The notes under the pieces were generated by a model that was not told the DNA's origin, made no database searches, and saw nothing but the letters and a program-made list of their open reading frames with translations. Both the position numbers and the translations under genes were made by a program. A stretch of DNA of 64,000 nucleotides from Longimicrobiales bacterium (GTDB lineage Bacteria; Gemmatimonadota; Gemmatimonadetes; Longimicrobiales; Gaopeijiaceae), in the NCBI GenBank assembly GCA_965202805.1, contig OZ241869.1:1248001-1312000 (forward strand), read 5' to 3'. Below are positions 3,090 to 33,175 of the stretch, one piece after another. Within the stretch, counting starts at the first letter, position 1. Each line of letters begins with the position of its first letter.

Positions 3090-4172
3090 ATGCGCATCGC
3101 GATCACCACCGGCGGCGGAGACGCGCCCGGCCTCAATGCCGTCATTCGCGCAGCGGTGCACGCGGCCCGGGCTCGGGGCTGGGACGTGTTCGGGATCCGG
3201 AAGGGCTATTCGGGTCTCTTCCAGGCGGGCTACGGCGGGGTGGTGGTGCTCGACGAGGCCGCGGTCCGCGGGATCACCCACGAGGGCGGCACCATCCTCG
3301 GGACGACCAGCCAGGGCAACCCGTTCTCGTTCCAGGTGACTCAGCCGGACGGGTCGGTGCGCACCGTGGACCGTTCCGGCGAAGTCATCGATCGCTTTCG
3401 CGAGATGGGGATCGACTGTCTCATCGCCATCGGCGGTGACGGCTCGCTCCGGATCGCGCGCGACCTGGCGCGCCAGGGCCTCAGCGTGATCGGCGTACCC
3501 AAGACCATCGACAACGACCTGGACGCCACCGTGGTCACGTTCGGCTTTCACACCGCCGTGCAGACCGCGACCGACGCCATCGACAAGCTTCATTCCACCG
3601 CCGAGGCGCACGAGCGCATCATGGTCGTGGAGCTGATGGGGCGGCATGCCGGCTGGATCGCGCTCTTCGCCGGCCTCGCGGCGGCCGCGGACGTGATCCT
3701 CATCCCGGAGATCCCCTACCGGCTCGACCGAGTGGTGGCGGCAATCGAGGCTCGGTGGAGCGGGGGCCACGAGTACGCGATCGTGGTCGTGGCCGAGGGC
3801 GCCCTTCCGGTAGGGGGCGAGGCCTCCTATCTGGACGACGGGACCGGCCTGAAGCGGCGACTGGGAGGGGCCGCGAAGCTGCTGAGCCACCAGCTCAGGG
3901 AACGGACCCGCCACGAGACCCGCAGCCTGGTGCTCGGACACCTGCAGCGGGGCGGCGCGCCGACCGCCTACGACCGCATCATTTCCCTGCGATTCGGATC
4001 CGCGGCCATCGAACTCGCGGAGCGCGGGCAGTTCGGCTGCATGGTCGCGCTGGAGCCGCCCGACGTGAAGGCGGTGCCCCTCGCCGAAGCCGTCAAGCGC
4101 CTCAAGATCGTGCCCGTCGATGGGGACGTCGTGCGGACCGCCCGGGCCCTGGGGATCTCGTTCGGCGACTGA
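3090..4172 (+). CDS. pfkA: 6-phosphofructokinase (mixed-substrate group III type, probably ATP-dependent)
   Basis: TGGGDAPGLNAVIR, GGTILGT, IGGDGS, PKTIDND, MGRHAGWIA, LGHLQRGG. GGDG rather than GGDD favours ATP. Confidence 0.93.
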   Translation: MRIAITTGGGDAPGLNAVIRAAVHAARARGWDVFGIRKGYSGLFQAGYGGVVVLDEAAVRGITHEGGTILGTTSQGNPFSFQVTQPDGSVRTVDRSGEVIDRFREMGIDCLIAIGGDGSLRIARDLARQGLSVIGVPKTIDNDLDATVVTFGFHTAVQTATDAIDKLHSTAEAHERIMVVELMGRHAGWIALFAGLAAAADVILIPEIPYRLDRVVAAIEARWSGGHEYAIVVVAEGALPVGGEASYLDDGTGLKRRLGGAAKLLSHQLRERTRHETRSLVLGHLQRGGAPTAYDRIISLRFGSAAIELAERGQFGCMVALEPPDVKAVPLAEAVKRLKIVPVDGDVVRTARALGISFGD

Positions 4173-4229: not shown

Positions 4230-4259
4230 TTGACAAGCCCTTATCCCGCTCCGCACTTT
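4230..4259 (+). promoter_or_regulatory. Sigma70-type promoter of the rightward glucan operon
   Basis: TTGACA (4230-4235), 18 nt, CACTTT (4254-4259). The same layout occurs at 16327-16298 on the minus strand. Confidence 0.65.
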
Positions 4260-4283
4260 GTTCGAGAGTCGAACAAAGTGCGG
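4251..4283. promoter_or_regulatory. Palindromic operator, probably for the ROK repressor
   Basis: Perfect 15-bp arms CCGCACTTTGTTCGA-gag-TCGAACAAAGTGCGG; core ACTTTGTTCG-N5-CGAACAAAGT overlaps the -10 box. Second copy at 16278-16302. Confidence 0.8.
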
Positions 4284-4345
4284 CGTGCTCCCACGCTGTT
4301 CAAGGCGCATTCACCGGCGGCGCCCCCCCGGGTCCGGAGCGAATC

Positions 4346-6793
4346 ATGACATCGAACACCTCCCTCGCACCGCCAGCCCTGGCATGCGCGCTCCTCCTGG
4401 CGGCTTTGGGCTGCTCCCGCGATCTGGGTCCGCTCGAGCCGGCGCCGTTTCCGACGAGCGGGGTTGTTTTCGAGGATGATTTCACCGGCGGCGTGCAGTT
4501 CCAGGCGTTCTCCACGTCCAAGGTCGACGCGCTCGCCATCGACCGTGTGGAGCGCTACCGGGGCGTGACCTCGCTCAAGTTCACGGTGCCCGGGCCGGGA
4601 GATCCCTCCGGCGGGTACTCAGGGGGCGCGTTCGTCTCCGCGATTCCCCGTGACCTGACCGGCTTCAACGCGCTCACCTTCCGGGCCAGGGCGAGCACCA
4701 GCGCCATCCTCAACTCCGTCGGATTCGGCAACGACAACACCGGCACCTCGCGATTCGTGGCGGATGTCGGCGGTCTTCCGCTCTCGACGACCTGGACGAA
4801 GTACGTCATCCCGATTCCGCTCGCTTCCAGACTGGACCGGGAGCGCGGCCTCTTCTTCCTCGCGGACGCGCCCGAGCATCAGGTAGGCTACGAGCTCTGG
4901 CTCGACGACATCCAGTTCGAGAGCCTGGGAACGATCATCAATTCACGCCCGGAGATCGCAACCCGGACGGTCAATGGAGAAGTGGGCGGCACACTCGACG
5001 TGACGGGCACGCAGGTCACCTTCGACGTGAACGGCAGGGACGTGACCGTGAACGCCATGCCCGGCTACTTCACGTTCCGGTCCTCGGACGAGAGCGTTGC
5101 CGCCGTCAACCAGGAGGGAGCCGTCGTCCTGGTCGGGGCGGGCACGGCCACGATCACGGCGAGCCTCGGCGGAACCGCCGCGCACGGCACGGTCACCGTA
5201 AACGTCGCGGCGCCGCCCACGACGGGCCCGCCGACGCCGGACTTCCCCGCGGACAACGTCATCTCGCTCTTCAGCGACGCCTACGACGACGTGCCCGTGG
5301 ACACCTGGTCGGCCGACTGGGACCAGGCGGACGTGCAGGATGTCGTGATCGACGGCAATACGCTGAAGCAGTACTCCAACCTGGTGTTCGCCGGCGTCGA
5401 GTTCACCTCGCAGCCGATCGACGCATCGGCCACGACCCACATGCACCTGGATCTCTGGACCTCCGATCCCTCGGCGTTCCGGATCAAGCTGGTGGACTTC
5501 GGCGCGGACGGCGCCTTCGGCGGCGGCGACGACAGCGAACACGAGATCACGCTCAACGAGGGTTCCGTGCCGTCCATCGGCGTCGGAGCCTGGAACGTCC
5601 TGGATATCCCGCTGGCCGACTTTGCGGGACTGTCATCCACGGGTCATCTCGCGCAGCTGATCATCTCCGGCGCCAGCCCGACCGTGTACCTGGACAACAT
5701 CCTGTTCTACAGTTCGGAGCCGATGGTGCCTGTGACCCCGGCGGCGCCCGCGGAGCCTGCGCCCACCCCGACGGCCGCGGCCGGCGATGTCGTCTCGCTC
5801 TTCAGCGATGCGTACGACGACGTTGCCGTGGACACCTGGTCCGCGGAGTGGGACCAGGCCGATGTCGAGGATGTCCTGATCGCCGGCAATGCGGCCAAGA
5901 AGTACACCAACCTCGGCTTCGCCGGCATCGAGTTCACCTCGCAGACCGTGGACGCCTCGGGCATGAGCCACTTCCACATGGACATCTGGACGCCGGATTC
6001 GTCGATGGATCCCGCCGCCTTCCGGGTGAAGCTGGTGGACTTCGGAGCCGACGGGGCCTGGGGAGGGGGGGACGACGTCGAACATGAGCTCGCGTTCACG
6101 GAAGCCTCCGACCCCGCGCTGGCCACGGGGAGCTGGGTCGGGCTGGATGTCCCGCTCCCGGCCTTCGAGGGACTCACAACGCGCGGGCATCTCGCCCAGA
6201 TGATCATCTCCGGCGATCCGAACACGGTGTACGTGGACAACGTCTACTTCTACGCCGTTTCGATGGAGCCTCCCACGGAGCCGGCCGAGCCCGCGCCGAC
6301 GCCGTCGCCGGCCGCCGAGAACGTCATCTCGTTCTTCAGCAACGCCTACGAGAACGTCACGGTGGACACCTGGTCGGCCGATTGGGACCAGGCGGACGTG
6401 GAAGACGTTCAGATCGGCGGGGACGACGTGAAGAAGTACACGAACCTCGCCTTCGCGGGCATCGAGTTCACCTCGGCCACGGTCGATGCCTCGGGCATGA
6501 CCCACTTCCACATGGATGTCTGGACACCGGATCCCACGGCGGACCCGGCCGCGTTCCGGATCAAGCTCGTGGACTTCGGGGCCGACGGGGCGTGGGGAGG
6601 CGGTGACGACGTCGAGCACGAAATCGCGTTCACCCAGGCGTCCGATCCCGCGCTGACCACCGGGAGCTGGGTCGCCATCGAGGTGCCCCTTTCCGCATTC
6701 GAAGGGCTCACGACCCGGGGGCATCTGGCCCAGATGATCATCTCCGGCGACCCGAACACGGTCTTCGTCGACAACGTGTACCTGCACAACTAG
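4346..6793 (+). CDS. Lipoprotein, putative surface glycan-binding protein: N-terminal beta-sandwich, Ig-like (Big_2) domain and three tandem CBM-like repeats
   Basis: Lipobox LAALG-C; Big_2-like FRSSDESVAAVNQEGAVVLVGAGTATITASL; three ~165-aa repeats (PTP...VISLFSDAY...DTWSADWDQAD...KLVDFGADG...HLAQ.IISG...DNVYFY) joined by Pro/Ala linkers; no catalytic motif seen. Confidence 0.75.
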   Translation: MTSNTSLAPPALACALLLAALGCSRDLGPLEPAPFPTSGVVFEDDFTGGVQFQAFSTSKVDALAIDRVERYRGVTSLKFTVPGPGDPSGGYSGGAFVSAIPRDLTGFNALTFRARASTSAILNSVGFGNDNTGTSRFVADVGGLPLSTTWTKYVIPIPLASRLDRERGLFFLADAPEHQVGYELWLDDIQFESLGTIINSRPEIATRTVNGEVGGTLDVTGTQVTFDVNGRDVTVNAMPGYFTFRSSDESVAAVNQEGAVVLVGAGTATITASLGGTAAHGTVTVNVAAPPTTGPPTPDFPADNVISLFSDAYDDVPVDTWSADWDQADVQDVVIDGNTLKQYSNLVFAGVEFTSQPIDASATTHMHLDLWTSDPSAFRIKLVDFGADGAFGGGDDSEHEITLNEGSVPSIGVGAWNVLDIPLADFAGLSSTGHLAQLIISGASPTVYLDNILFYSSEPMVPVTPAAPAEPAPTPTAAAGDVVSLFSDAYDDVAVDTWSAEWDQADVEDVLIAGNAAKKYTNLGFAGIEFTSQTVDASGMSHFHMDIWTPDSSMDPAAFRVKLVDFGADGAWGGGDDVEHELAFTEASDPALATGSWVGLDVPLPAFEGLTTRGHLAQMIISGDPNTVYVDNVYFYAVSMEPPTEPAEPAPTPSPAAENVISFFSNAYENVTVDTWSADWDQADVEDVQIGGDDVKKYTNLAFAGIEFTSATVDASGMTHFHMDVWTPDPTADPAAFRIKLVDFGADGAWGGGDDVEHEIAFTQASDPALTTGSWVAIEVPLSAFEGLTTRGHLAQMIISGDPNTVFVDNVYLHN
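5228..6790 (+). repeat. Three intragenic tandem domain repeats (about 5228-5710, 5759-6253, 6293-6790)
   Basis: Near-identical protein blocks and shared nucleotide stretches such as GTGGACACCTGGTC and GATCATCTCCGGCG in all three copies; repeats 2 and 3 are the most similar. Confidence 0.9.
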
Positions 6794-6821
6794 CCCAGGC
6801 ATCCCGGGGACGGGGGAGACA

Positions 6822-8057
6822 ATGTCCAGCGCGATGACCGCTCCGCAGGCGGCGGGCTCCAGAGCACGCGGGCCCTCGCTCTCGAACCTGATGCTCAAGC
6901 TCATCTGGCGGCGGAAGGAGATCTCGCGGGCCGACATCGCCCGGGTGATGGACCTGTCCAGATCCACCGTCTCAAGGATCGTCTCCGACCTTCAGTCCAC
7001 CGACCTCGTCGCCGATGTCGGCGTCGGGCCCAGCCGAGGCGGACGCCGTCCCGTTCTGGTGGCCTTCCAGGACGGCGCGCGCGTGATTCTCGGGGTCGAT
7101 GTCGGCGCCAGCCATGTCTCGGTGGCGCTGACCGACCTGAGGGGACGCGTGCTGGCCTGGCGGGAGCGAGGACATCCGGTGCGCTCCGACCCCGCCGGCA
7201 CCCTGCGGCTGATCGGCGAACTGTGCGACGCCTGCCTGGCTGCCCGCGACCGGCCTTTCTCCGACCTGGTCGGGATCGGTGTCGCCGTGCCCAGCCCGGT
7301 CGATCCCCGCAATCCGGGCCGCATGTTCGACCGGATCTTCCCGGCATGGCGCGGACACAGCGTCGTGGACCATCTGCAGACGCGCTACGACACCGCCGTG
7401 GTCGTGGACAACGACGCCAACCTGGGAGCCGTGGCCGAGCACCGGTGGGGATGGGGCGTCGGCGTCGACGATCTCACCTACCTGAAGGTGTCCACCGGGA
7501 TCGGTGCGGGACACATCATCGGCGGCAGACTCAACCGCGGCTCTGCCGGGATGGCCGGGGAGATCGGACACCTGGCCACCGCATCGGACGGTCCACCCTG
7601 CGTCTGCGGCAACCGGGGATGCCTGGCCACGTTCGCGGGAACCCTCGCCGTCCTGAACCGCGTGGAAGCCCTGCTCCCGGAGCATGCCGACAGCCTGCTC
7701 GCCGACCGCCGGCTCAGCATCGCCGCCTTCGAGGAGGCGGCTCTGGCCTCGGACCGGCTGGCACTGCGGGTCGTCCACGAAACCGCCCAACACCTGGGAA
7801 CCGCCATCGCGGGCGTCCTCAACCTGATGAACCCGGCCACGGTGATCCTCGGAGGCAGCCTCGCGCGTCTGGGCGACCTTCTGCTGGAACCGCTCCGGGA
7901 CGCGGTGTCGCGCAGAACGTTTGCGGGCTCCCTCGCCTCCGCAACCATCCGCACGAGCGCCCTGGGCCCGCAGTCCATCGCGCTCGGCGCGGCCACCCAT
8001 ATCCTCGACAGCGCCCTGGCCGATACCCGCCTCTTCCTGCGAGCAGCCGCCAAATGA
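6822..8057 (+). CDS. ROK-family transcriptional repressor (XylR/NagC/Mlc-like)
   Basis: N-terminal HTH (ISRADIARVMDLSRSTVSRIVSDL), GGRRP, GVDVG, DNDANLGAVAE, GEIGH...CVCGNRGCL Zn motif. Confidence 0.93.
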   Translation: MSSAMTAPQAAGSRARGPSLSNLMLKLIWRRKEISRADIARVMDLSRSTVSRIVSDLQSTDLVADVGVGPSRGGRRPVLVAFQDGARVILGVDVGASHVSVALTDLRGRVLAWRERGHPVRSDPAGTLRLIGELCDACLAARDRPFSDLVGIGVAVPSPVDPRNPGRMFDRIFPAWRGHSVVDHLQTRYDTAVVVDNDANLGAVAEHRWGWGVGVDDLTYLKVSTGIGAGHIIGGRLNRGSAGMAGEIGHLATASDGPPCVCGNRGCLATFAGTLAVLNRVEALLPEHADSLLADRRLSIAAFEEAALASDRLALRVVHETAQHLGTAIAGVLNLMNPATVILGGSLARLGDLLLEPLRDAVSRRTFAGSLASATIRTSALGPQSIALGAATHILDSALADTRLFLRAAAK

Positions 8058-8899
8058 ACGCCTTACGCAAGCATCTGCGAGAATGCCGGGTCCGGTTTCG
8101 GATTCCGGTCCGTCCCGTCCTGCTGGTCCCCGCGCTGGCTCTCATCGCGGCGTGCGAAGCGGACGAGGGCCCGATCTGGACGCTGGTCTGGGAGGACGAG
8201 TTCGAAGGAGCCGCCGGCCAGCTCCCCGACCCGCAACGCTGGACCTTCGACATCGGGGGTCACGGCTGGGGCAACGCGCAACTCGAGTACAACACGGATC
8301 GCGCGGAAAACGTGTCCCTGGACGGAAACGGCAACCTGGCGATCGTCGCGCGACGGGAGTCCTACCAGGGCAACGGCTACACCTCCGGCCGCATCAAGAC
8401 CCAGGGACGTTTCGAACAGGCCTATGGCCGCTTCGAGGCCCGCATCCGCCTGCCGGTGGGCGCCGGCATCTGGCCCGCGTTCTGGATGCTTGGCCACGAC
8501 ATCGACGCCGTCGGCTGGCCCGAGTGCGGCGAGATCGACATCATGGAATACCGGGGCCAGGAGCCCGGGGTCATCCACGGGAGCCTCCACGGGCCGGGCC
8601 ATTCGGGCGGCCAGGCGGTGACCCGGCGCCATGCCCTCCCCGACGGGCGCTTCGACACCGACTTCCATGTGTTCGGGATCGAGTGGGACAGCGAGTCGAT
8701 CTCCTGGTTCGTGGACGGCGAACGATACAACGTGGTCCGCAGTGGAGACGTCTCCGGGCGCTGGGCGTACGACCACCCCTTCTTCCTCCTGCTCAACGTC
8801 GCCGTGGGCGGGAACTTCATCGGTCCGCCGAACGACGCCACCGTCTTCCCGCAGACGATGCTGGTGGACTGGGTTCGCGTCTATGAGCGAGCCGGATGA
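8054..8899 (+). CDS. GH16 endo-1,3-beta-glucanase (laminarinase-like), lipoprotein
   Basis: LVWEDEF, GWGNAQLEY, YTSGRIKT, GIWPAFWMLG, catalytic WPECGEIDIME, LLNVAVGG; lipobox LIAA-C; ATG 8054 overlaps the ROK stop (ATGA). Confidence 0.92.
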   Translation: MNALRKHLRECRVRFRIPVRPVLLVPALALIAACEADEGPIWTLVWEDEFEGAAGQLPDPQRWTFDIGGHGWGNAQLEYNTDRAENVSLDGNGNLAIVARRESYQGNGYTSGRIKTQGRFEQAYGRFEARIRLPVGAGIWPAFWMLGHDIDAVGWPECGEIDIMEYRGQEPGVIHGSLHGPGHSGGQAVTRRHALPDGRFDTDFHVFGIEWDSESISWFVDGERYNVVRSGDVSGRWAYDHPFFLLLNVAVGGNFIGPPNDATVFPQTMLVDWVRVYERAG

Positions 8900-10956
8900 T
8901 GAGCCAGGAGACCGCTCCCCGCGACCGCATCTCCTTTCCCCACAAGATCGCCTACGGGATCGGCGGCTTCGTAAACAACCTGCTGGCGCAGGGCATCGGC
9001 AACATGATGATCGTGCTGACGCTGGCGCTGGGGATGGACTTCCGCGCGGTCGGCCTGCTCGGCAGCCTGCCGCGCGCCTTCGACGCCGTCACCGATCCCC
9101 TGGTCGGGTTCATCTCCGACAGGACCAGATCCCGATGGGGCCGGCGCAGGCCGTTCCTCTTCGCCGGGGCGATCGCGTCGGGGATCGTCTTCGTCCTGCT
9201 CTGGCAGATGCCGGCGCCGACCCAGTTCCGGCTCAAGCTGGTCGACTACGGCGCGGACGGGGTCTACAGCGGCGGCGAGACGGGCGAGCCGGTGGGGCTG
9301 CTGGCATCCGTAGGGGAATCGCTCAGGGGCATCGTCAGCGTCGAACTGATCGACGATGTCGAGGACGAAGTCACCGTCCTGCCCCCAACGCTGGTCACCG
9401 GCGCCTGGGTGAGCATCGACATACCGCTTGCCGACTTCGACGAGCTCGCGACCCGCGAGCATCTTTCGCAGATCCTGATCTCGGGGGACCTGACCGAGGT
9501 TCATGTCGACAACGTCTACCTCTACCGCAGCGCCGACACTGCCCGGGCGGGGCCCGCGGGAGAGGACGTGGAGGGAGTGGCCGCGCCGAACACAGCCGCG
9601 CCGGCGCCAACGCCGGCTGCGGAAGACGTCATCTCGTTCTTCAGCGGCGCCTACGACGATGTCCCGGTCCAGTTCTGGTCCACGGACTGGGACCAGGCGG
9701 ACGTCGCGGACACCGAGGCCGGCGGCGACGCCGTCAAGCACTACACGAACATGCGCTTCGCCGCGATCGACTTCGGCGAGACCCCCGTCGACGCCAGCGA
9801 GATGACGCACGTCCACATGGACGTCTGGACCCCGGAGCCCACCGGCGAGGGCCGGAGCCAGAGCTACTACTTCTGGTACTTCCTGATCGGATCGCTGGTC
9901 TTCTTCCTGGCCTACACCGTCTTCGCGACACCCTGGGTGGCCCTCGGATACGAGCTGACGCCCGACTACAACGAACGCACGCGGCTGATGGGGGTGCAGA
10001 ACTTCGTCTCCAACATCGCCTTCGTCATCGGGCCCTGGTTCCTCGTGATCATGACCAATCCGGCGTGGTTCAGGAACCAGATGGCCGGGGCCAGGTTCCT
10101 CGCGCTCGCCATCTGCATCACGACCATCGTGCTGGGCGTGCTTCCGGCGATCTTCCTGCGGGAGCGGGTGCCGACGAGAGATGCCGCAACGGACGGCAGC
10201 AGCTTCGGGGAGAGCGTGATGCAGTTCCTCAAGGGGCTGCTGCAGACGGTCAGGACGGGTCCCTTCCTTCTGCTCTGCGTCGCGACGTTCCTGATCTTCA
10301 ACAGCTTCATCATGATCTCCCAGTTCCAGTTCTGGGTGTTCGCCTACTACATCTCCGGCGGGAACATCGGCGACGGAGCGGCCCTGGCCGGGCTGGTCGG
10401 GACACTGGGCATCGTCGCGGGCTTCGCGGTGATCGTGTTGGTCACCTGGCTGGGCACCAGAATCGGGAAGAAAAACGCGTTCTTCGTGTCGACGGGCATC
10501 TCGATGTTCGGCTATGCGCTGAAGTGGTTCTGCTATTCGCCCGAATATCCGATGCTGGCGCTGCTGCCCGCCCCGTTCCTGGCCTTTGGTCTGGGCGGAC
10601 TCTTCACGCTCATGGGATCCATGATCGCGGATGTGGTTGATCTGGACGAAATCAGCACCGGCGAGCGGCGCGAGGGGATGTTCGGGTCGGTCTACTGGTG
10701 GGTCGTCAAGGTGGGCCAGAGCCTCGCGATACTCGCGGGAGGATTCCTGCTCTATTCGACGGGGCTCGACCCGGCGCTGGGAGCGAACCAGCCCGAAGGG
10801 ACGATCTTCTGGCTGCGTTTCTACGACGCCTTCGTGCCGCTCGCCGCATCGGCCATCGCTGTGTACGCCGTCTACAGGTACCCGATCACCGAAGAGAGCG
10901 CGCTCAGGGTGCGGGACGAGCTGGAGCGCAGGCGGGGAGCGAGGGCGACGGCCTGA
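8896..10956 (+). CDS. MFS glycoside-pentoside-hexuronide (GPH) sugar transporter with a ~205-aa inserted periplasmic CBM-like domain
   Basis: GPH motifs DAVTDPLVGFISDRTRSRWGRRRPF, ELTPDYNERTRL, MIADVVD...TGERREG, YPIT. At 686 aa it is about 200 aa longer than a typical GPH permease; the extra lies at 9226-9834, between TM3 and TM4. Confidence 0.9.
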   Translation: MMSQETAPRDRISFPHKIAYGIGGFVNNLLAQGIGNMMIVLTLALGMDFRAVGLLGSLPRAFDAVTDPLVGFISDRTRSRWGRRRPFLFAGAIASGIVFVLLWQMPAPTQFRLKLVDYGADGVYSGGETGEPVGLLASVGESLRGIVSVELIDDVEDEVTVLPPTLVTGAWVSIDIPLADFDELATREHLSQILISGDLTEVHVDNVYLYRSADTARAGPAGEDVEGVAAPNTAAPAPTPAAEDVISFFSGAYDDVPVQFWSTDWDQADVADTEAGGDAVKHYTNMRFAAIDFGETPVDASEMTHVHMDVWTPEPTGEGRSQSYYFWYFLIGSLVFFLAYTVFATPWVALGYELTPDYNERTRLMGVQNFVSNIAFVIGPWFLVIMTNPAWFRNQMAGARFLALAICITTIVLGVLPAIFLRERVPTRDAATDGSSFGESVMQFLKGLLQTVRTGPFLLLCVATFLIFNSFIMISQFQFWVFAYYISGGNIGDGAALAGLVGTLGIVAGFAVIVLVTWLGTRIGKKNAFFVSTGISMFGYALKWFCYSPEYPMLALLPAPFLAFGLGGLFTLMGSMIADVVDLDEISTGERREGMFGSVYWWVVKVGQSLAILAGGFLLYSTGLDPALGANQPEGTIFWLRFYDAFVPLAASAIAVYAVYRYPITEESALRVRDELERRRGARATA

Positions 10957-11034
10957 CCGGGGTCGGCCACCTGAGTCGGCGTGCGTCCGCGGACGAGTCG
11001 AGTCACGAGCGGCCGGCGGCGCCCGCGCGCGACC

Positions 11035-12963
<1,929 letters not shown>

Positions 12964-13012
12964 GGATCGGCGACGGGGACCTGGGAGTTCACGCAGCCGG
13001 GCAGGCTCGTTC

Positions 13013-16000
13013 CTACAACCCGATGTGCAGATAGGTGCGGACTTCCCACTCACTTCCCTGCCGGCTGCCGCCAGCCATGGGGTTGCACACCTGTTTGCCC
13101 GCCTGGTCGGACATCATGGCCGGACAGAACCTGGGAGAATACTCGTCCAGGCTGCGCCACGTCGCGCGCACGCCGAAGCGGGTCTGGGGAAGATCGAACC
13201 AGCCGGGCACGCCGAGCACGTAGGAAACATCCCCCATGACCTGCATCGGGAAGGTGTGGTTGTAGTCCCGGTGGTAGTCGTAGGGGCCCCAGTCGTTGAA
13301 GCGAAGGAAGCTCTGGATCTTGACCGGTCCCGTGATCATGCGGATGTCGCCTCCCAGCCGTTTCACAAGCCGCTGGTCGCTCCCGTTGGGCTCCGCCGTC
13401 CCGGTATACACGTTGGCCACGAAGCCCCCGCCCCCCGGACGCTTCGAAACCAGGCGCGCCCGCAACTCCCAGAGATCTCTGGCCGCCGGCGCGCTGGGGA
13501 AGGCGAAGGCAGTGCGCCCGTCGGGCAGAATGCCGATGCCGGCGTCCTGGGTCGTGGCGAAACTCCGGTACACGAAACCCACCGACGCGGCGAACGGGGC
13601 GTCCTCGCGGATATCGCTGTCCCAGTTGTACATCCAGGTGGCGGGAGTGGGATCGTAGGTGATGAGCAGCTCTGCCGCGGTGCTCTCCCGGTTCCCGCCG
13701 CGGACCGCGAACGGGTCGTCGAGGATGTTGCGGGGACGGGCGGGCGCCGGGAGCCCGGCGGGGATCGGTCCCACCAGGGGCTTCTGCCACATGAAGTTGG
13801 GCGCCACCTGCCAACTGCCGGAGTTGATGGCCAGACCGGTGAGGAAGCTCCACCGGTTGCCGATGCCCGAGTCCTTCAGGTGCCATCCGGTGAAGGTGAG
13901 CGTCTGCGTGGGGCCGCCATCGGCAACCAGGCCCATGGCCGCTCCCTCGGCGTACCAGTTCCAGCGTCCCCTGGTCACGGTGAGCTTCGCCTTGGCCCCC
14001 AAAGCGTCGGATGCCTGGATCTCGTCCCCCAGCACCCGGCCGTTCTCGGCGATCTGGAAGGCTTCCCCCACCTTCGTGGAGCCCGACCAGATGCCACCCA
14101 GATCGAGCCCGACTCCACCGCTGGAGGCGGCCGCGAGGTGAAGCGTCGCCTTGCGGGTGGGCGGCAGCGGAATCGCGAACGAACTCGCGACCGACTGCTG
14201 CTCCGCCAGGTCCTCCTGGAAGATGCCCGTGACCTGGAAGGGGCCCGTCTGCCGCTGGTACTTGGCGAGCACGGCCGGGTTGGCGCCCCACCACAGCTCG
14301 GGACCGATGGCCACCTTGAGGCCGCTCAGGGCGCGCTTGCCCATGACCTCCATCCCGAGCGGGGCCACACCGTTGTATATGTCGATGTTGGGCCCGTAGT
14401 TGGCCTCGGGATACAGGCCGAAGAAATCGCCTTCGTATCCCCAGTGATAGTGGCCGGTGCGGTAGAAGCCGTCCAGCCGGAACCAGCGGTCGTCCCAGGA
14501 CACGTTGGCCCGATAGACCTTGACGCGCTCCAGATCGTTCAGCGCCAGCGGCTCGCCGTCGGAACTCACCATGCGCGACCGGCCGCGGTTCTCGTAGAAG
14601 ATCTCGTCAATGGGGTTCGACGGCACGTCGCCGAGCACGTTGAACGACAGGGTGGCGAGCATGTTCTGGGTCGGGCGCGCGGTGAGGTCGGCGTAGAAGG
14701 ACTGCTTCTTGTCGAATCCCATGAACCCCGGACGCGCGATGCTTCCCGGGACCGGGTTCGCGGGTGTGCTCAACAGTGAACCGCCCGTGCTGTAGGTTTC
14801 CAGCTCGATGCGAAGGCCGCTCAGGTGCACGCGGTCACGCGCGGACGCCAGCAGCGCGGCGCGGTCGCCCAGCGCCTGCAGTCCCGCGTCGGCCGCCTCG
14901 ATGGAGCCGAAGTGCTCGCGGATCGTATCCAGATCCGTACCGGGCGCATACGGGTCGAGCCGGTAGGCCTCCTGCAATGCGTAGTAGGCCGCCCGCGGGT
15001 ACAGGTCGTAGAGCTTCCGGTGGTCGGCCGGCCCCTTGGCCACGATCCCCCACCACTCCTCGTTCATGTTGTTGTCGCCCGCCACGAAATCCTCGGGATA
15101 GGCGTCGTTGGCCCAGGACGCGTTCGTGTCCTGGATGTCCAGGCGGTCTTCCTGGCCGAACTTCCACCACCCGTCCGTCCACTGGAAGGTCAGGCCGCCG
15201 ATGGAGTTGCCCACGAGGCCCTTCCCCGCCGACTGCTCGTAGATCTCCTGCCACTGGCCCACCAGGTAGCGGGCCTGGGTGACCTGGTCCTCGCGCATGC
15301 GCCGCGCGTCCCACACGTCCGCGCCGAACTCGGTGAACATCACGGGCACGCCGACAACGTCGTGGACGTCCTGGAAGAGCTGGCCGAAGGAGATGCCCCG
15401 GTACACGTTGGTGCCGAAAACGTCCAGATCCGGAATCTCCTCGGCGATGATGTCGAGGTACTGCAGATCGCCGTTGGCCATGGCGATGGGCCGGGACGGA
15501 TCCATCTCCTTGATCCTTCGGGCGACGTCGCCGAAGAGCGAGTACATGTAGCGCGCACGCACGGCGTCCGCCTCGCCCTGGGGCAGATCCTCGGTTTCGG
15601 CTGAACTCCACACGAGGCCGTAGTTGTTCTCGTTGCCCAGCAGCCACATGAGGACGCCCGGGACGTCCTTGAACTCGTCCACCATGGCCTCGATCTCGGT
15701 CATCACGACTTCCCGCGCGCGCGGATCCGAGTAATCGGTGTTGGCATTGAAGACGCCGCCCACCGTTACGCCATAGCGGGCCACCGCGTGGTTGAGGACG
15801 GTGAAGATCCCGTAGCGCTCGTAGATGTGCCGGACCCATTTCGGCTGGATGCCGACGTATGCGCGGATGGCGTTTCCACCCATCGCCTTGAGCACGGTCA
15901 TCTCCCGCTCGAGCGCGGCCTCGATGACCTCGTCGGACTCCGACCAGAAGTTGTAGTTGTAGGTCGTTCCGATGGGGAAATAGTCCCAGTTCACGCCCAG

Positions 16001-16195
16001 CACCATGAAGTCCTCGCCGTCCACCTGCAGCCGCTGGCCGGAATCGTCGGTGACGATGCGGATTTCGGGGAGGTGGGTCTCGTCGGTCTGGCTCGAGGCC
16101 GGAGTGGCGGCGGCCAGCAGGAAAACCGCCGCCATCGGGGCGCCGATCCAGGATCGGACGACGAAGCCGGCTGAGTGGTGATGTATCCGGTTCAT
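13013..16195 (-). CDS. Clan GH-A (GH2/GH158-like) TIM-barrel hydrolase fused to a C-terminal putative outer-membrane beta-barrel
   Basis: Signal peptide; GVNWDYFPIG, MGGNAIRAY, acid/base WLLGNEN, nucleophile MFTEFG, FQWTDGWWK. The C-terminal ~600 aa is rich in alternating amphipathic strands and ends in a beta-signal-like WEVRTYLHIGL. RBS GGAGGA. Confidence 0.75.
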   Translation of the reverse strand: MNRIHHHSAGFVVRSWIGAPMAAVFLLAAATPASSQTDETHLPEIRIVTDDSGQRLQVDGEDFMVLGVNWDYFPIGTTYNYNFWSESDEVIEAALEREMTVLKAMGGNAIRAYVGIQPKWVRHIYERYGIFTVLNHAVARYGVTVGGVFNANTDYSDPRAREVVMTEIEAMVDEFKDVPGVLMWLLGNENNYGLVWSSAETEDLPQGEADAVRARYMYSLFGDVARRIKEMDPSRPIAMANGDLQYLDIIAEEIPDLDVFGTNVYRGISFGQLFQDVHDVVGVPVMFTEFGADVWDARRMREDQVTQARYLVGQWQEIYEQSAGKGLVGNSIGGLTFQWTDGWWKFGQEDRLDIQDTNASWANDAYPEDFVAGDNNMNEEWWGIVAKGPADHRKLYDLYPRAAYYALQEAYRLDPYAPGTDLDTIREHFGSIEAADAGLQALGDRAALLASARDRVHLSGLRIELETYSTGGSLLSTPANPVPGSIARPGFMGFDKKQSFYADLTARPTQNMLATLSFNVLGDVPSNPIDEIFYENRGRSRMVSSDGEPLALNDLERVKVYRANVSWDDRWFRLDGFYRTGHYHWGYEGDFFGLYPEANYGPNIDIYNGVAPLGMEVMGKRALSGLKVAIGPELWWGANPAVLAKYQRQTGPFQVTGIFQEDLAEQQSVASSFAIPLPPTRKATLHLAAASSGGVGLDLGGIWSGSTKVGEAFQIAENGRVLGDEIQASDALGAKAKLTVTRGRWNWYAEGAAMGLVADGGPTQTLTFTGWHLKDSGIGNRWSFLTGLAINSGSWQVAPNFMWQKPLVGPIPAGLPAPARPRNILDDPFAVRGGNRESTAAELLITYDPTPATWMYNWDSDIREDAPFAASVGFVYRSFATTQDAGIGILPDGRTAFAFPSAPAARDLWELRARLVSKRPGGGGFVANVYTGTAEPNGSDQRLVKRLGGDIRMITGPVKIQSFLRFNDWGPYDYHRDYNHTFPMQVMGDVSYVLGVPGWFDLPQTRFGVRATWRSLDEYSPRFCPAMMSDQAGKQVCNPMAGGSRQGSEWEVRTYLHIGL

Positions 16196-16277
16196 GGCAA
16201 GACTCCTCCGATGGGCTCCAGCCCGCGCGGGGCGTGCCGTTCAGGACGGCGCAATCTGCCCCGGCGCTCCGCGCGTA

Positions 16278-16302
16278 ACTTTGTTCGCCATCCGAACAAA
16301 GT
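16278..16302. promoter_or_regulatory. Second ROK-type palindromic operator
   Basis: ACTTTGTTCG-CCATC-CGAACAAAGT, with the same arms as 4255-4279. Confidence 0.8.
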
Positions 16303-16327
16303 GAGGAGTCGTCCCGGGCCCTGTCAA
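16298..16327 (-). promoter_or_regulatory. Sigma70-type promoter of the leftward glucan operon
   Basis: Minus strand TGC-TTGACA (16327-16322), 18 nt, CACTTT (16303-16298). The -35 box contains the TGA stop of the upstream MutS-like gene. Confidence 0.65.
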
Positions 16328-18261
16328 GCAGAAAACGCGCGATTGTCGTCAGGCAAGGCGAGTCCCGCGAGCTCCAGCAGCCGCAAGGCGTTCGTCGAGG
16401 TGGCGATGCCGATCCTGAGGCGATAGTCGAAGGTGAGGCCCTCGCTCCCGTCGCCGACGGACTCGGTCAGGTGGACGGGGACGGCGCTCACGTTCAGATC
16501 TTCCGCGTCGGCCAGCGACAGGTCGTGAGTCGTGACGGCGCCGATGGCGCCCGAGCGGAGCAGCCTTCGCAGGACGGTTCGCGCGGCGATTCTGCGTTCG
16601 GCGCTGTTGGTGCCCTGGAGGATCTCGTCGAGGAGGTAGAGGACTCCGGGACCCCCGGACGCTGCGCCATCTGCCGATGCCCCTTCTCCGGCACCGGGTC
16701 CGGGCGCCGCGCCGGCCGTTTCGGCCGCATCCACGACCTGCTTGAGGCGCCGCAGTCCGGCCATGAAGAAGGACACGCCGTCGGCGAGGGAGTCCGCGAC
16801 ATGCATGCTGGTGACGACGCGCAGCGGTGGAATGCGGAGAGCTTCGGCGCACACCGGTCCACCCGCCTGGCCGAGCACGGCATTCAGGCCGACGGCCTTC
16901 ACGAGCGTGGACTTCCCGGACATGTTCGATCCCGTCACCAGGAGAAACGAGCCTGCCGGGCCCACCTCCACGTCGTTGCGCACGCAGAGTTCCGGAGCGA
17001 GAAGAGGATGGCCCAGCGCCCGCCCCCGGAGCGTGGTGGCTTCGGCGTCCAGCGTGGGCATGGTCCAGTCGGGATGATCGGCGGCGAGCGCCGCCAGGGC
17101 GGCCAGCGCCTCGGCTTCGCCAACGGCGTCGATCCACCCGCGGACGCGAGCGCCCGACCCCTTCTTCCAGCGTTCGAGCGCGGCCAGGACATGGACGTCC
17201 CAGAGCAGGACCAGGGAAAGGGGAACGTGGAAGAGGGGCGACCTCCTGACTTCCGCCATGTCCAGCAGCCGGCGCAGCGTCGCGATCTCCCGATGGGCGG
17301 GTCTCGTGCCGGCGCCCAGCCGTCGTCGGAGATCCGTCGCGTAGCGTGACTCGAGGGGTGCGTCGGCCAGGAGGCCGAGCAACGGCCCGTAGTGCCGCAC
17401 GCCCGATTCGCCATCGTCGGCCTCGGAGCAGGCCCGGTTGATCGCCTTCCACGCCGGCGCCATCACCAGAGCCGACACCAGCAGCGGCCAGGCGACGACA
17501 GCCGTGGGCGCCATCCCCAGAGAGTAGAGAATGATGGCGGCCAGATTCACCGGCGGAAGCAGAATCGCCGCCGCGCGAAGCCAGGTGCGCCCGGACAGCC
17601 AGCCCGGACTCTCGCACCAGCGCAGGAAGTCCTCCACCTCCTCCACCGAGTCGCCGTTCATCAGGCGGGCTTCGGCCGCGATGCGGTCCCGGAGATCGAA
17701 GGCGCCGTCCATCTCGCGCACCGCCTCCTGCCGCAAGGCGATGGTCTCCGGGTCCGCCGGAGCGAGAAGCCAGGACCAGAGCGTCGCCCGGCCGGGCGCG
17801 GTTCCGCAGACTCCCGTCAGGTGAACGAGCGACGCGCGACCGTGCAGGTCCAGGTCGTCCGCGTAGTCGTGGTTCCGCGGCACGGCCGGACTGAACGGCC
17901 GGGGCAGACCGGACCACCGGCGCTCGACGCGCGCGATCCCCTCCCGATTGAAGTCGGCCATCAGCTCGGCGCGGCGCAGACGCCGCCGGGCGGCCCGGTG
18001 TCGCGCGACCAGGATCGCGAAGGCCGCGACCGCGCCCGCCACGAGCAGCCAGGCGGCCTGGCCGCGTCCCTGGGAGATCAACAGCCAGGCGCCGACCCCG
18101 GCGGCCGCGAAGACCCCCAGCCGGAGCCGCTCGAGCAACCGGACCACGCCGGCCCTCCCGGCCGCCTCGCGATCGAAGCGGCGGGCGCGGTCCGCGTATC
18201 GGTCGGCGGGCGGTTCGACAGCTTCCGCGCCGGGTGAGGTTGGCTCCGTTCGGGTGCTCAC
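16324..18261 (-). CDS. Membrane-anchored MutS-like ATPase (MutS domain V only)
   Basis: Walker A VTGSNMSGKST, DSLADGVSFFMAGL, Walker B YLLDEILQGTNS, TTHDL, TFDYRL...STNALRLL; several hydrophobic helices in the N-terminal half; no mismatch-binding domain. Confidence 0.85.
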   Translation of the reverse strand: MSTRTEPTSPGAEAVEPPADRYADRARRFDREAAGRAGVVRLLERLRLGVFAAAGVGAWLLISQGRGQAAWLLVAGAVAAFAILVARHRAARRRLRRAELMADFNREGIARVERRWSGLPRPFSPAVPRNHDYADDLDLHGRASLVHLTGVCGTAPGRATLWSWLLAPADPETIALRQEAVREMDGAFDLRDRIAAEARLMNGDSVEEVEDFLRWCESPGWLSGRTWLRAAAILLPPVNLAAIILYSLGMAPTAVVAWPLLVSALVMAPAWKAINRACSEADDGESGVRHYGPLLGLLADAPLESRYATDLRRRLGAGTRPAHREIATLRRLLDMAEVRRSPLFHVPLSLVLLWDVHVLAALERWKKGSGARVRGWIDAVGEAEALAALAALAADHPDWTMPTLDAEATTLRGRALGHPLLAPELCVRNDVEVGPAGSFLLVTGSNMSGKSTLVKAVGLNAVLGQAGGPVCAEALRIPPLRVVTSMHVADSLADGVSFFMAGLRRLKQVVDAAETAGAAPGPGAGEGASADGAASGGPGVLYLLDEILQGTNSAERRIAARTVLRRLLRSGAIGAVTTHDLSLADAEDLNVSAVPVHLTESVGDGSEGLTFDYRLRIGIATSTNALRLLELAGLALPDDNRAFSA

Positions 18262-23259: not shown

Positions 23260-25926
23260 ATGGTTTCGCGTGTTCATCCATGCAGGACGTTCCTCTACGC
23301 CGCCATGCTCCTCCCGGCAACGTTGATTCCGGTCGGCACCGCGCACGCGCAGCTCCCGTCGCCGCCGGAGTTGGCGACGCTCTCCGTACCCCGCTTCGAC
23401 ATCGCCACCTCCCCCATCGAACTCACCGGCCCGGTGCGGCCCGGCGAATACCTCGGCGTGGTCGGCCCGCGCGCCGCATGGCTGGGGCTCGAGACCGGTG
23501 AAGCCGAGCTGTGGGTCCATCCGCTGAAGGTCGGCAACGGCTTCCGCCTGAGCTTCTCTGCCTCCGGCAACGCCGCGCCGGTTCCGGGGAGCGAAGTGGC
23601 GCGTACGGTTCGGGTGCGGCCCGAACTCACCACCATCACCTACAGCCACGCGGCCTTCCAGGTGCGCCAGCACATCCTCGCGCCCGCTGACACGGCCACT
23701 TCCGGCCTGCTCGTGCTGCTGCAGGTCGACGCTCCCCAACCCCTCGAGATCATCGCCGAATTCGAGCCCGTGCTGAACTACATGTGGCCGGGCTCGCTGG
23801 GCGGACAGTACGCGTACTGGGATGCGGAGCGCCGGCTTTTCGTTCTCTCGGAGAGCCTGCAGACCCGCAACGCGGTCGTGGGCTCGCCCTGGGCCACGAA
23901 CTCGGTCGAGCACCCCGCGCACCAGTTGGGCGAGGCCCCGCGCACGATGGTGATCCCCGTAGACCCGGAGCGGGCGAGGCGCGAGTTCATTCCGATCGCG
24001 ATCGCGGCCGGCACCGGTCTCCGTGAAACCGTCTTCGAGAGCTACCGGGGACTGGTCGCGAACGCCGAGGCGCTCTACTACGACAAGCGGTTGTGGGCCA
24101 GTCGGGCCCTCGAGTCCACCGTCTCCATCGAGACCCCCGATCCCGAGCTGGATCTCGCGCTCGAGTGGGCGAAGATCAACCTGGAGGAACAGCGGGTGTG
24201 CAACCCGGATCTGGGGTGCGGCTTCGTCGCCGGGTGGGGGTTGTCGCGCAACGGCACCCGCCCCGGGTTCGGCTGGTTCTTCGGCGGCGATGCGGCCATC
24301 AACACGTTCGCCATGGACGCGCTGGGCCAATGGGACCTGGTGGCCGAGGAGCTGGCGTTTCTCGCCCGCTACCAGCGCGCCGACGGCAAGATCACCCACG
24401 AAATCTCGCAGGCCGCGGCGCACGTCGACTGGTTCGGCGAATACCCTTACGCGTACTACCACGCGGACACCACGCCGTACTGGATGCTCGCGCTCTACGA
24501 GTACTGGCGGGCCAGCGGCGACGACGAGCTGGTGCGCGAGCTGTGGCCGGCCTACCGGCGTGCGTGGGCGTGGTGCCTCAGCGCCGAGACCGACGGCGAC
24601 GGCATCATCGAGAACACGGTGGGCGGTCTCGGCGCGGTCGAGGTGGGGGGGCTGGGGGAAGCGATCCATCAGGATGTCTACCTGGCCGCGGTGTGGGTGG
24701 CTGCGCTCGATGGGGCGCGCGTGCTGGCTCGGCACATGGGCGACGACGAGATCGAGGAGGACGCGGGGCTCCTCGGGATCAGCGCGCGGTCAACGATGAA
24801 CAGCGGATACTGGCGCGAAGCCGAGGGACATCACGCCTTCGGCATCCTTCGCGGAGGCGGCACAAACGACAACCTCACGGTGTGGCCCGCCACCGCGGCG
24901 GCCTTCGGACTGCTCAACGACCGCGAGGCTCGCTCGACACTTGCCCGTATCGCCGGCGACCGCGTCTCGTCCGACTGGGGCGCGCACATGCTCTCGACCG
25001 AGAGTGACCTCTATGACCCGCTCCAGTACAACATGGGCACGGTGTGGCCCTTCGTGACCGGGTTCGCGGCGTGGGCGCAGTACCGCCACCGCCGTCCATG
25101 GGCGGGCTTCCATCTCATCGACGCCGTCAAGCAGATGACATTCGACTGGAGCCTGGGCCGGCACCCGGAGCTGCTATCGGGGAGCTTCTATCAGCCCCTC
25201 GACCAGACCGTGCCGCACCAGTTCTTCGCGACCTCGATGCTCGTGACGCCGCTGCTCAGGGGCGTCGTCGGCTGGCGGCCGGACGCGCCCCTTGGACGGG
25301 CCCGGCTTGCCCCGCAGCTGCCGCCCGACTGGCCGGAGGCGACGGTGCGCGGCCTGCGCGCCGGCAACACGACGCTGGATGTGGAGATTCACCAGGACTG
25401 GACGTCCGCCGGGGGCCGGCAGCGAGCGATCATCCGCTGGCAAGGTCCCCGGCTGGATCTCGACTTCGTTCCGGATGTGCCCGCGGGAGCGCGGAATCGG
25501 TCCGTCACCGTGGACGGCGTCCCCACGTCGTCCACAGCAGCCGTCCGGGTCGAGGTGGGTCGCGACGCACCCGTACCGGAGGGTCCCGAATCCGAAGGCG
25601 TGGACCAGGACGACGTCACCGAGATCGAGGTACGATGGGAGGGCGGACTGGCGGTGGCCCCGCCCCGCATCGACCTGGTGCCGGGTCAGCGCAGCACGGG
25701 CCTCCGGATCATCGACCTGGTGGCCGACGGGGATGGTTGGCTGCTGACCCTCGAGGGCACACGGGGACGCGACTACGATGTTGAACTCTTCGGCACGCCG
25801 ATCGACGCTGCTCCGACCGACGCCGCCGCGAGCGCATCCGGCCGAACGGAGGGTACGATCCGCGTGAGCTTCGCCGGCGAGGGGAGCCGCGCGACGACGG
25901 TTGTGAGGCTCAACCCCGGGGCATGA
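23260..25926 (+). CDS. Secreted six-hairpin glycosidase (amylo-alpha-1,6-glucosidase/glycogen-debranching-like)
   Basis: GGAGG RBS; signal peptide ending AHA-Q; PGFGWFFGGD, YQRADGKITHE, YYHADTTPYW, ETDGDGIIEN, YDPLQYNMGTVWP, PELLSG. Confidence 0.75.
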   Translation: MVSRVHPCRTFLYAAMLLPATLIPVGTAHAQLPSPPELATLSVPRFDIATSPIELTGPVRPGEYLGVVGPRAAWLGLETGEAELWVHPLKVGNGFRLSFSASGNAAPVPGSEVARTVRVRPELTTITYSHAAFQVRQHILAPADTATSGLLVLLQVDAPQPLEIIAEFEPVLNYMWPGSLGGQYAYWDAERRLFVLSESLQTRNAVVGSPWATNSVEHPAHQLGEAPRTMVIPVDPERARREFIPIAIAAGTGLRETVFESYRGLVANAEALYYDKRLWASRALESTVSIETPDPELDLALEWAKINLEEQRVCNPDLGCGFVAGWGLSRNGTRPGFGWFFGGDAAINTFAMDALGQWDLVAEELAFLARYQRADGKITHEISQAAAHVDWFGEYPYAYYHADTTPYWMLALYEYWRASGDDELVRELWPAYRRAWAWCLSAETDGDGIIENTVGGLGAVEVGGLGEAIHQDVYLAAVWVAALDGARVLARHMGDDEIEEDAGLLGISARSTMNSGYWREAEGHHAFGILRGGGTNDNLTVWPATAAAFGLLNDREARSTLARIAGDRVSSDWGAHMLSTESDLYDPLQYNMGTVWPFVTGFAAWAQYRHRRPWAGFHLIDAVKQMTFDWSLGRHPELLSGSFYQPLDQTVPHQFFATSMLVTPLLRGVVGWRPDAPLGRARLAPQLPPDWPEATVRGLRAGNTTLDVEIHQDWTSAGGRQRAIIRWQGPRLDLDFVPDVPAGARNRSVTVDGVPTSSTAAVRVEVGRDAPVPEGPESEGVDQDDVTEIEVRWEGGLAVAPPRIDLVPGQRSTGLRIIDLVADGDGWLLTLEGTRGRDYDVELFGTPIDAAPTDAAASASGRTEGTIRVSFAGEGSRATTVVRLNPGA

Positions 25927-26100: not shown

Positions 26101-26247
26101 TCATCGTCCGGAGCCTGCTTCGGTTGACCGTGGCATAACCGCAACCCGTGCGGTGAAGCCTGGCGCAACGTATTAGTTATTGGCTAGGGGGCGGTGTGTG
26201 GCTGCGGACACGGAGCAGACCTCTCCCGACCGTCTCGAGGACAGCGT

Positions 26248-31694: not shown

Positions 31695-31719
31695 CCGGGC
31701 CGAACATGCGGAGGCAATC

Positions 31720-33150: not shown

Positions 33151-33175
33151 GTCGCCGGATGGAGGAAGCTCGTCC

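Follow-up and report, generated by a model that had tools for sequence, protein, structure and literature searches.

In the 64,000-nucleotide stretch of Longimicrobiales bacterium DNA analysed here (contig OZ241869.1; the whole stretch is referred to as the window), six genes at positions 4346–16195 form two convergent operons that probably constitute a variant laminarin utilization locus. The locus, the operator shared by its two promoters, the fusion of a glycoside hydrolase (GH) with a predicted β-barrel, and the circularly permuted domain inserted in a sugar symporter are real features of this DNA. On the basis of structure models, we lean cautiously toward a TonB-independent import of β-1,3-glucan through the barrel with cleavage in the periplasm. 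A wider proposal, to which we give somewhat less than even credence, is that Bacteroidota, Ignavibacteriota, Gemmatimonadota, and neighbouring phyla have, parallel to SusC/SusD, another and ancient class of glycan importers in the outer membrane, formed by the barrel and its partner lipoprotein. In such an importer, an ungated 24-stranded channel would be combined with a periplasmic endoglucanase that, in place of TonB, drives laminarin entry, and the products would pass to a symporter having a capture domain. Laminarin is one of the main forms in which carbon circulates in the ocean, and SusC/D are almost the only markers by which its uptake is judged. If the proposal is true, a family of more than 5,000 proteins may be a different importer, which would change the counts of laminarin use in genomes and explain loci devoid of SusC/D.

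Organization of the locus

The rightward operon encodes, in this order, a lipoprotein, a ROK protein, a GH16 enzyme, and a GPH symporter, and the leftward operon encodes the GH-A/barrel protein followed by a GH3 enzyme; ATGA overlaps are found at 8054–8057 (ROK/GH16) and 8896–8899 (GH16/symporter). The features are as follows.

4230–4280, + strand: likely promoter TTGACA-N18-CACTTT, overlapped by the operator palindrome CACTTTGTTCG-N5-CGAACAAAGTG
4346–6793, + strand: 815-residue lipoprotein with lipobox Cys23, a CBM30/CBM11-like domain, a Big_2 Ig domain, and three repeats of ~160 residues
5234–5710, 5765–6253, and 6299–6787, + strand: the three lipoprotein repeats, ~160 residues each
6822–8057, + strand: putative ROK-family repressor with helix-turn-helix (HTH) and ROK domains
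8054–8899, + strand: GH16 laminarinase-type enzyme with an EIDIME motif and a lipobox cysteine kept in homologues
8896(8899)–10956, + strand: GPH-family (MFS_2) sugar:cation symporter
9214–9855, + strand: circularly permuted copy of the lipoprotein repeat, in a six-residue loop between symporter helices 3 and 4
11035–12963, − strand: GH3 exo-β-glucosidase without a signal peptide; nearest solved structures, barley ExoI and the exo-1,3/1,4-β-glucanase 3RRX
13013–16195, − strand: 1060-residue protein with a signal peptide, a clan GH-A TIM barrel, and then ~24 amphipathic β-strands
~16078–14906, − strand: clan GH-A TIM barrel of the 1060-residue protein, with Glu189 and Glu289
14830–13019, − strand: the ~24 amphipathic β-strands of the same protein
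16277–16327, − strand: likely promoter of the leftward operon, TTGACA-N18-CACTTT, again with the operator palindrome

The original prediction, made from the letters of this DNA, had claimed this order, these strands and families, and both overlaps, all of which we found; it had also claimed the absence of TonB-dependent receptors and ABC transporters, and in family-profile scans none of the six locus proteins matched the TonB receptor, SusD, or ABC families. At the sequence level, the locus has the co-located carbohydrate-active enzymes, transporter, and regulator under common control that define a polysaccharide utilization locus (PUL). The tandem susC/susD pair of Bacteroidota-type PULs is not present, the nearest pair lying ~13 kb away among unrelated genes. 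The genome, placed in the Gemmatimonadota by its nearest named relatives (Longimicrobiales and Ca. Palauibacter), is a single contig of 4.02 Mb (98% complete), with a GC content of 68.4% as compared with 67.7% for the locus, and both the barrel and the lipoprotein repeat occur in it only at this locus. The barrel, GH16, and repeat co-occur in the same 2 of the 19 genomes of the genus, suggesting that they come and go as a unit.

Structure model of the barrel-fused hydrolase

The AlphaFold2 model of the 1060-residue protein (143 alignment rows; pLDDT, 93.7; pTM, 0.87) consists of a GH157/GH158-like TIM barrel and ~24 amphipathic strands. Counting from the secondary-structure list of the model gave 24 long strands in residues 456–1059, each with one more hydrophobic face. 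The loops average 23 residues after the odd strands and 6 residues after the even strands, and the enzyme domain is joined on the short-turn side. The signal peptide, the even number of amphipathic strands, and the long loops and short turns on opposite sides are the predicted features of an outer-membrane β-barrel. Outer-membrane barrels usually expose their short turns and the two chain ends to the periplasm; by this rule, the fused GH-A domain is predicted to lie on the periplasmic side, unless the linker helix threads the pore. Neither a plug nor a TonB box was found in the protein, nor a match to PF07715 or PF00593; the N-terminus of the mature protein already aligns with the opening strands of GH158 6PAL and folds into the GH domain. 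The conserved polar and aromatic residues are concentrated in two of the long loops, which follow strands 5 and 15. The barrel-fused hydrolase of the original prediction is thus borne out by a confidently predicted fold with 24 amphipathic strands, but the order of the entry step had to be revised, as the prediction places cleavage by the hydrolase in the periplasm, once the chains have entered.

Of 7,999 candidates scored, at least 5,121 belong to the barrel family (2,121 representative matches at 50% identity), whose members are now labelled only as GH2 or 'glycosidase'; the Atlas matches for the barrel were unnamed clusters and DUF6029 (0.93). Flavobacterium terrisoli and Flavilitoribacter nigricans are cultured carriers. 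A tree of 40 rows largely follows the phyla, with Bacteroidota (support, 99) and Gemmatimonadota (84) each forming one group, yet the barrel gene was found in only 2 of 41 related genomes, a combination suggestive of old inheritance with frequent loss or transfer within the phylum.

Gene neighbourhoods of the barrel

The neighbourhoods were compared in the best 80 of 601 matched GTDB loci and the window, 81 loci in total with flanks of up to 10 kb. Among loci with sufficient flank, the barrel gene is followed directly by that of the lipoprotein in 23 of 24 from Bacteroidota/Rhodothermales and in 4 of 5 from Ignavibacteriota, Calditrichota, and Delongbacteria; in 18 of 18 Gemmatimonadota loci it is followed by the GH3 gene, and there the lipoprotein gene heads the facing operon. 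The lipoprotein or its repeat was found in 54 of 56 loci, a ratio inflated by counting as testable those with 6 kb downstream or a match. When the 45 TonB-receptor and SusD proteins of the window genome were run as probes against the 81 loci, matches were obtained in three (L009, L069, and L072), and no TonB receptor or SusD was found in 36 of the 38 loci having at least 9 kb on both sides.

Loci laid out like marine laminarin PULs contain the barrel gene. Within ~600 bases of it, 10 Bacteroidota loci encode a regulator of the 940-residue type, which from its size and position only we take to be BguR, and Bacteroidota barrel loci also contain genes resembling GH149, GH17, and GH30 (labels unconfirmed by family scan); GH149-, GH17-, and GH30-like probes gave no match in the window genome. 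As far as described in the available text, BguR directly precedes SusCD in F. agariphila (10.64898/2026.01.10.698779).

Repeat lipoprotein

The N-terminal domain of the lipoprotein is CBM30/CBM11-like by profile (E, 0.004), and 6 and 4 of the 52 members, respectively, gave Pfam matches to these families. For the repeat, the leads in the Atlas were CBM_11 (12% of members) and CBM_4_9 (13%), and its comparison with the profile of the N-terminal domain gave a probability of only 24%. No significant match among PDB sequences was obtained for the lipoprotein, for the profile of its repeat, or for the L069 protein described next. The repeat matches a SusD-adjacent protein in the Bacteroidota locus L069 (26% identity; E, 8e-14). 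The surface glycan-binding protein Cf-SGBP contains CBMxx repeats, reportedly those now named CBM102. The layout of the L069 protein recalls this laminarin-binding protein, and the window lipoprotein shares with it the Ig domain(s), the tandem, highly similar β-sandwich repeats, and the location in a laminarin locus, as far as the accessible part of the report describes it (10.1101/2023.09.07.556657). It differs in that its repeat has no sequence match to solved structures and its N-terminal domain is CBM30/CBM11-like. Glycan binding by the repeats is plausible. Elsewhere, the locus of genome G009 has two tandem lipoprotein genes (G009:C1:218082–220349), the same genome has a separate 1054-codon frame with three more repeats, and P0328 joins such repeats to leucine-rich repeats.

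Circularly permuted insert of the symporter

The symporter was assigned to the GPH (MFS_2) family by PF13347 (202 bits; cut-off, 27), whose profile matches both sides of the insert; TIGR00792 scored 169 bits, below its cut-off of 231. In residues 106–317, the C-terminal half of the lipoprotein repeat comes first and is joined by a linker to the N-terminal half. The symporter of the window was compared with 28 of its 35 matches, those under 440 residues being dropped. The loop between helices 3 and 4 has 6 residues in 20 of these 29 proteins and 216–231 residues in the other nine, which form one group (support, 100/99) on a tree built without the insert, indicating a single origin. The insert is under purifying selection, as judged from the sequences: dN/dS is 0.14–0.62 in 35 of 36 pairs (one is saturated), and the values of the core are somewhat lower (0.05–0.39). 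An assembly error was ruled out by the related symporters carrying the insert, by 22 further homologues 79–93% identical over it, and by contig X2, which spans it (8518–10309) without a difference, although the run that gave X2 may be the source sample; pieces from X4 and X1 each bridge single junctions of the insert. Pieces of the loci of relatives were also found in one sponge metatranscriptome run; we rejected these as a sign of transcription, since the contigs also cover the flanks. The transporter-tethered module of the original prediction is thus real, in the form of a permuted lipoprotein repeat.

Most of the conserved residues of the repeat are kept in the insert (Trp171, Asp205, Asn206, Tyr253, and Tyr283 in 9/9), and Trp265 and Gln192 are lost in 2/9. 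Folded alone, the insert is modelled as a single β-sandwich of nine strands (pLDDT, 85.8; pTM, 0.82). The permutation cut appears to fall in a hairpin, so that the new ends would be neighbours suited to a short loop; the insert represents a clean natural circular permutation from tandem repeats, by which a domain is fitted into a six-residue membrane loop. By the topology of MelB, loop 3–4 is periplasmic. The best structure match of the insert model had a Z-score of 4.8 (root-mean-squared deviation (rmsd), 3.5 over 105 aligned residues), and Foldseek gave no match at E of 0.001. The insert is a putative sugar-binding domain. All nine insert-bearing symporters contain 25 extra residues inside the DxGADGxxGGGDD loop (window 9270–9350), a segment of variable sequence and low model confidence.

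The nearest published case, as far as the accessible text describes it, is FbGH17B-MFS of Formosa, which also bears a carbohydrate-active module on a transporter of the major facilitator superfamily (MFS) in a laminarin locus (PMC6246565). In that protein, however, a GH17 enzyme follows the last helix, whereas the window symporter has a non-catalytic, circularly permuted module in loop 3–4 (PMC6246565).

Shared operator of the two operons

Both operons start with TTGACA followed, after 18 bases, by CACTTTGTTCG-N5-CGAACAAAGT (4230–4279, + strand; 16327–16278, − strand), and the operator ACTTTGTTCG-N5-CGAACAAAGT has exact copies at 4255 and 16278. No other copy was found at 1–4 mismatches over the 20 specified bases with spacers of 3–7 in the whole 4.02 Mb, so that none of the 13 SusC/D pairs of the genome carries it. 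The 81 loci contain 76 sites at up to 4 mismatches, as compared with 0–2 for ten scrambled palindromes. The operator is present in all 24 loci having a ROK gene and in 1 of 29 Bacteroidota/Rhodothermales loci; in the close loci L011, L012, and L029, the ROK gene and the operator are both missing but the other genes are retained. A −35-like hexamer lies 18–30 bases from 67 of the 76 sites (3.8% of random places), an arrangement that is, at the level of sequence, the layout of a repressor site over a −10 region. A generic scan of the region called no promoter, owing to the weak −10 hexamer CACTTT that matches at 3 of 6 positions only, and found 5 terminators against 4.6 expected. With its HTH and ROK domains and its co-occurrence with the palindromic operator on promoters, the ROK protein is a putative repressor that probably acts on the two promoters via this palindrome. 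The co-regulation proposed originally is thus supported beyond chance by the exact operator at both starts. The distant SusC/D pair under the same control, for which a genome-wide operator scan had been suggested, was rejected: the scan found no copy beyond the two locus sites, and a glycoside hydrolase was matched by none of the 72 open reading frames (ORFs) examined around the SusC/D pairs (69 from 12 regions and 3 from the window, taken with a crude codon filter and below 850 residues, SusD ORFs being set aside).

The BglR system of Thermotoga maritima, which reportedly relies on ABC uptake, is an experimentally tested analogue. BglR is also a ROK repressor of a laminarin/β-glucoside operon with a palindromic site, and is released by glucose or cellobiose, according to the accessible part of the report (PMC3553997); its site, a 23-bp AT-rich motif, is unlike the window operator (PMC3553997).

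The gene pfkA (3090–4172, + strand) lies directly upstream, as noted originally, yet we rejected it as a member of the system, since the operator sits 3′ of its stop codon, no pfk gene is found beside the lipoprotein gene in L003, L006, L011, L012, and L017, and any pfk gene occurs in only 2 of the 81 loci (30–36% identity). The adjacency is therefore not conserved, and the gene is outside the regulon. In the two loci in question (L018:8869–9774 and L023:17131–18141), the distant pfk gene is divergent from an operator-bearing promoter, and glycolysis may join the regulon in such lineages.

Enzymes and likely substrate

The GH16 enzyme carries EIDIME at residues 160–165, an ExDxxE motif with the β-bulge, and closely matches laminarinases; its best PDB matches are β-1,3-glucanases (E, 4e-80), and it also matches β-1,3(4)-glucanases. 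It is encoded by the only GH16 gene in the genome and is a lipoprotein by sequence, a lipobox cysteine being visible in the window protein and its homologues. The best PDB matches of GH3 are β-glucan exohydrolases (E, 1e-150), namely barley ExoI and the bacterial exo-1,3/1,4-glucanase 3RRX. The cytoplasmic location claimed for GH3 is in keeping with the absence of a signal peptide and with the N-termini of close homologues, which, as read by eye, have no hydrophobic leader. In an Ignavibacteriaceae locus (L046:1319–4642), the symporter and GH3 occupy one reading frame of 1107 residues, through fusion or a lost stop codon, which also fits a cytoplasmic GH3.

The 1060-residue protein gave a weak GH2_C family match. 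Its enzyme domain is a (β/α)8 barrel of clan GH-A with glutamates after strands 4 and 7, and Glu189 and Glu289 are conserved in 95–96% of aligned rows. The best profile match was GH158 (E, 2.5e-11). VIA-align ranked GH157 first (Z-score, 29.5; rmsd, 2.9; 314 aligned residues), with GH158 at a Z-score of 28.0 (rmsd, 3.4; 298 aligned residues), and the top 10 rows of Foldseek were all GH157/GH158, with GH158 first. The domain shares the clan GH-A fold with the GH158 enzymes BuGH158 (6PAL) and GH158(Pro) (9ORO) and with the GH157 enzyme LaGH157 (9FZ9), and the NE acid/base and TEFG nucleophile motifs of these endo-β-1,3-glucanases align with it. The solved enzymes are, however, only 18–21% identical to it and consist of 400–530 residues without a barrel. 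The best matches of GH16, GH3, and the GH-A domain are all β-1,3-glucan-active proteins, in agreement with the original claim, and with good confidence from sequence comparison we assign β-1,3-glucan (e.g., laminarin) as the probable substrate.

Proposed mechanism and alternatives

In the proposed mechanism, the ROK protein would repress both promoters through the operator until glucose or a short glucoside binds. The repeat lipoprotein, which has a lipobox and is probably located at the surface beside the barrel, may bind glucan chains, which the GH16 lipoprotein, presumably also at the surface, would cut. The chains would then thread the barrel, whose fold and sidedness are predicted, without TonB, and the periplasmic GH-A domain would cleave them, keeping an inward gradient. 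The permuted module of the symporter may hold the oligosaccharides near the mouth of the transporter, and the cytoplasmic GH3, which has no signal peptide, would finally release glucose. The pipeline proposed earlier is retained in its parts (the barrel, the tethered module, and the cytoplasmic GH3) and changed in two respects, in that GH16 is itself a lipoprotein and the barrel hydrolase is placed after entry.

Several observations weigh against this mechanism. The repeat has no counterpart in Pfam or among solved structures, and the lipoprotein was not found in two Gemmatimonadota loci with full flanks (L008 and L010). Structure-search lists for the 1060-residue protein were filled by matches of the GH domain, and GH2 and GH5 structures score nearly as high as GH157/158 in VIA-align (Z-scores, 27.9 and 27.4), GH2 being within 2 Z units. 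In L069 and L072 (2 of 29 Bacteroidota loci), a single cluster contains the barrel together with SusC and SusD, indicating that the barrel does not always replace SusC/D, and flanks of up to 10 kb may hide more such cases; the earlier description of the system as 'SusC/D-free' thus holds for the window locus but not for the barrel family. Finally, the genome has 39 TonB-receptor matches over the cut-off, which could import the sugar under other control.

The last two points would also be expected if the locus degrades β-1,3-glucan and the barrel serves only as an anchor or scaffold, with the GH16 oligomers entering via general porins or an unlinked TonB receptor. We regard this as unlikely, though worth keeping in mind. 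The genome also has 13 SusD matches over the cut-off, and the published laminarin loci with GH158/GH2 genes include, in the text available, one with SusCD, that of F. agariphila (10.64898/2026.01.10.698779). On the other hand, the surroundings of the SusC/D pairs of the genome showed neither the operator nor, in the scan of 72 ORFs, a glycoside hydrolase, and the conserved polar and aromatic residues clustered in two long loops resemble channel constrictions. The ~24 strands are also far above the need of an anchor, for which 8–12 strands are said to suffice.

It is quite improbable, in our view, that the barrel is a dedicated pore for export, delivering its own GH domain or the lipoproteins encoded next to it to the surface. 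The tight pairing of the barrel gene with the lipoprotein gene, the Ig domain of the lipoprotein, and the fimbrial ushers, reportedly also 24-stranded, are compatible with such a role; however, the side predicted to face the periplasm carries an intact catalytic domain with conserved glutamates, no usher or autotransporter family of Pfam matches the barrel, and two loci have no lipoprotein nearby. We assign a similarly low probability to a system that works as described on another β-glycan, such as mixed-linkage or β-1,6 glucan or a host glycan. The GH16 matches to β-1,3(4)-glucanases, the GH3 matches to 1,3/1,4 exo-glucanases, and the tie of GH2/GH5 folds with GH157/158 would allow it, but the top matches of all three enzymes and the provisionally labelled GH149-, GH17-, and GH30-like genes of the Bacteroidota loci argue for β-1,3-glucan.

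Comparison with known importers and laminarin loci

As with SusC/SusD, a large barrel gene is directly followed by a lipoprotein gene, often as the first genes after a regulator. The barrel differs from SusC in having no plug, no match to the TonB-receptor or SusD families, a catalytic domain at the N-terminal position, and ~24 strands, compared with a reported 22 in SusC; its lipoprotein is all-β and CBM-like, whereas SusD is helical. With the laminarin PULs of marine Bacteroidota (Formosa agariphila, Formosa Hel1_33_131, Muricauda, and Christiangramia forsetii), the window locus shares GH16, GH3, a GPH/MFS transporter, a multi-repeat lipoprotein, a GH2/GH158-type gene, and one local regulator. 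It differs from these PULs in the absence of SusC/D, in having a ROK repressor instead of BguR, and in its two convergent operons. In the accessible parts of published accounts of these PULs, no barrel is attributed to the GH2/GH158 gene; the Muricauda laminarin loci are described with a GH2 gene (PMC13188888). No description of a barrel-fused glucanase, of a carbohydrate-binding module (CBM) inserted in an MFS loop, or of glucan use by Palauibacter was found in the searched literature, most subscription papers and bioRxiv supplements, which may bear on novelty, being beyond the search.

Neighbouring genes in the window

A MutS-like ATPase is encoded at 16324–18261, with its stop codon overlapping the −35 hexamer of the barrel operon, an adjacency not kept in relatives. 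At 23260–25926, outside the operator control, lies the gene of an 888-residue secreted protein that weakly matches a GH116-like catalytic domain (E, 2.9e-7). The region 26194–34597 contains a PSD/DUF1592 gene, a SusC/SusD pair, and a DUF1552 gene, and a PSD–DUF1552–ankyrin cassette also flanks several other SusC/D pairs of the genome (L090, L091, and L094).

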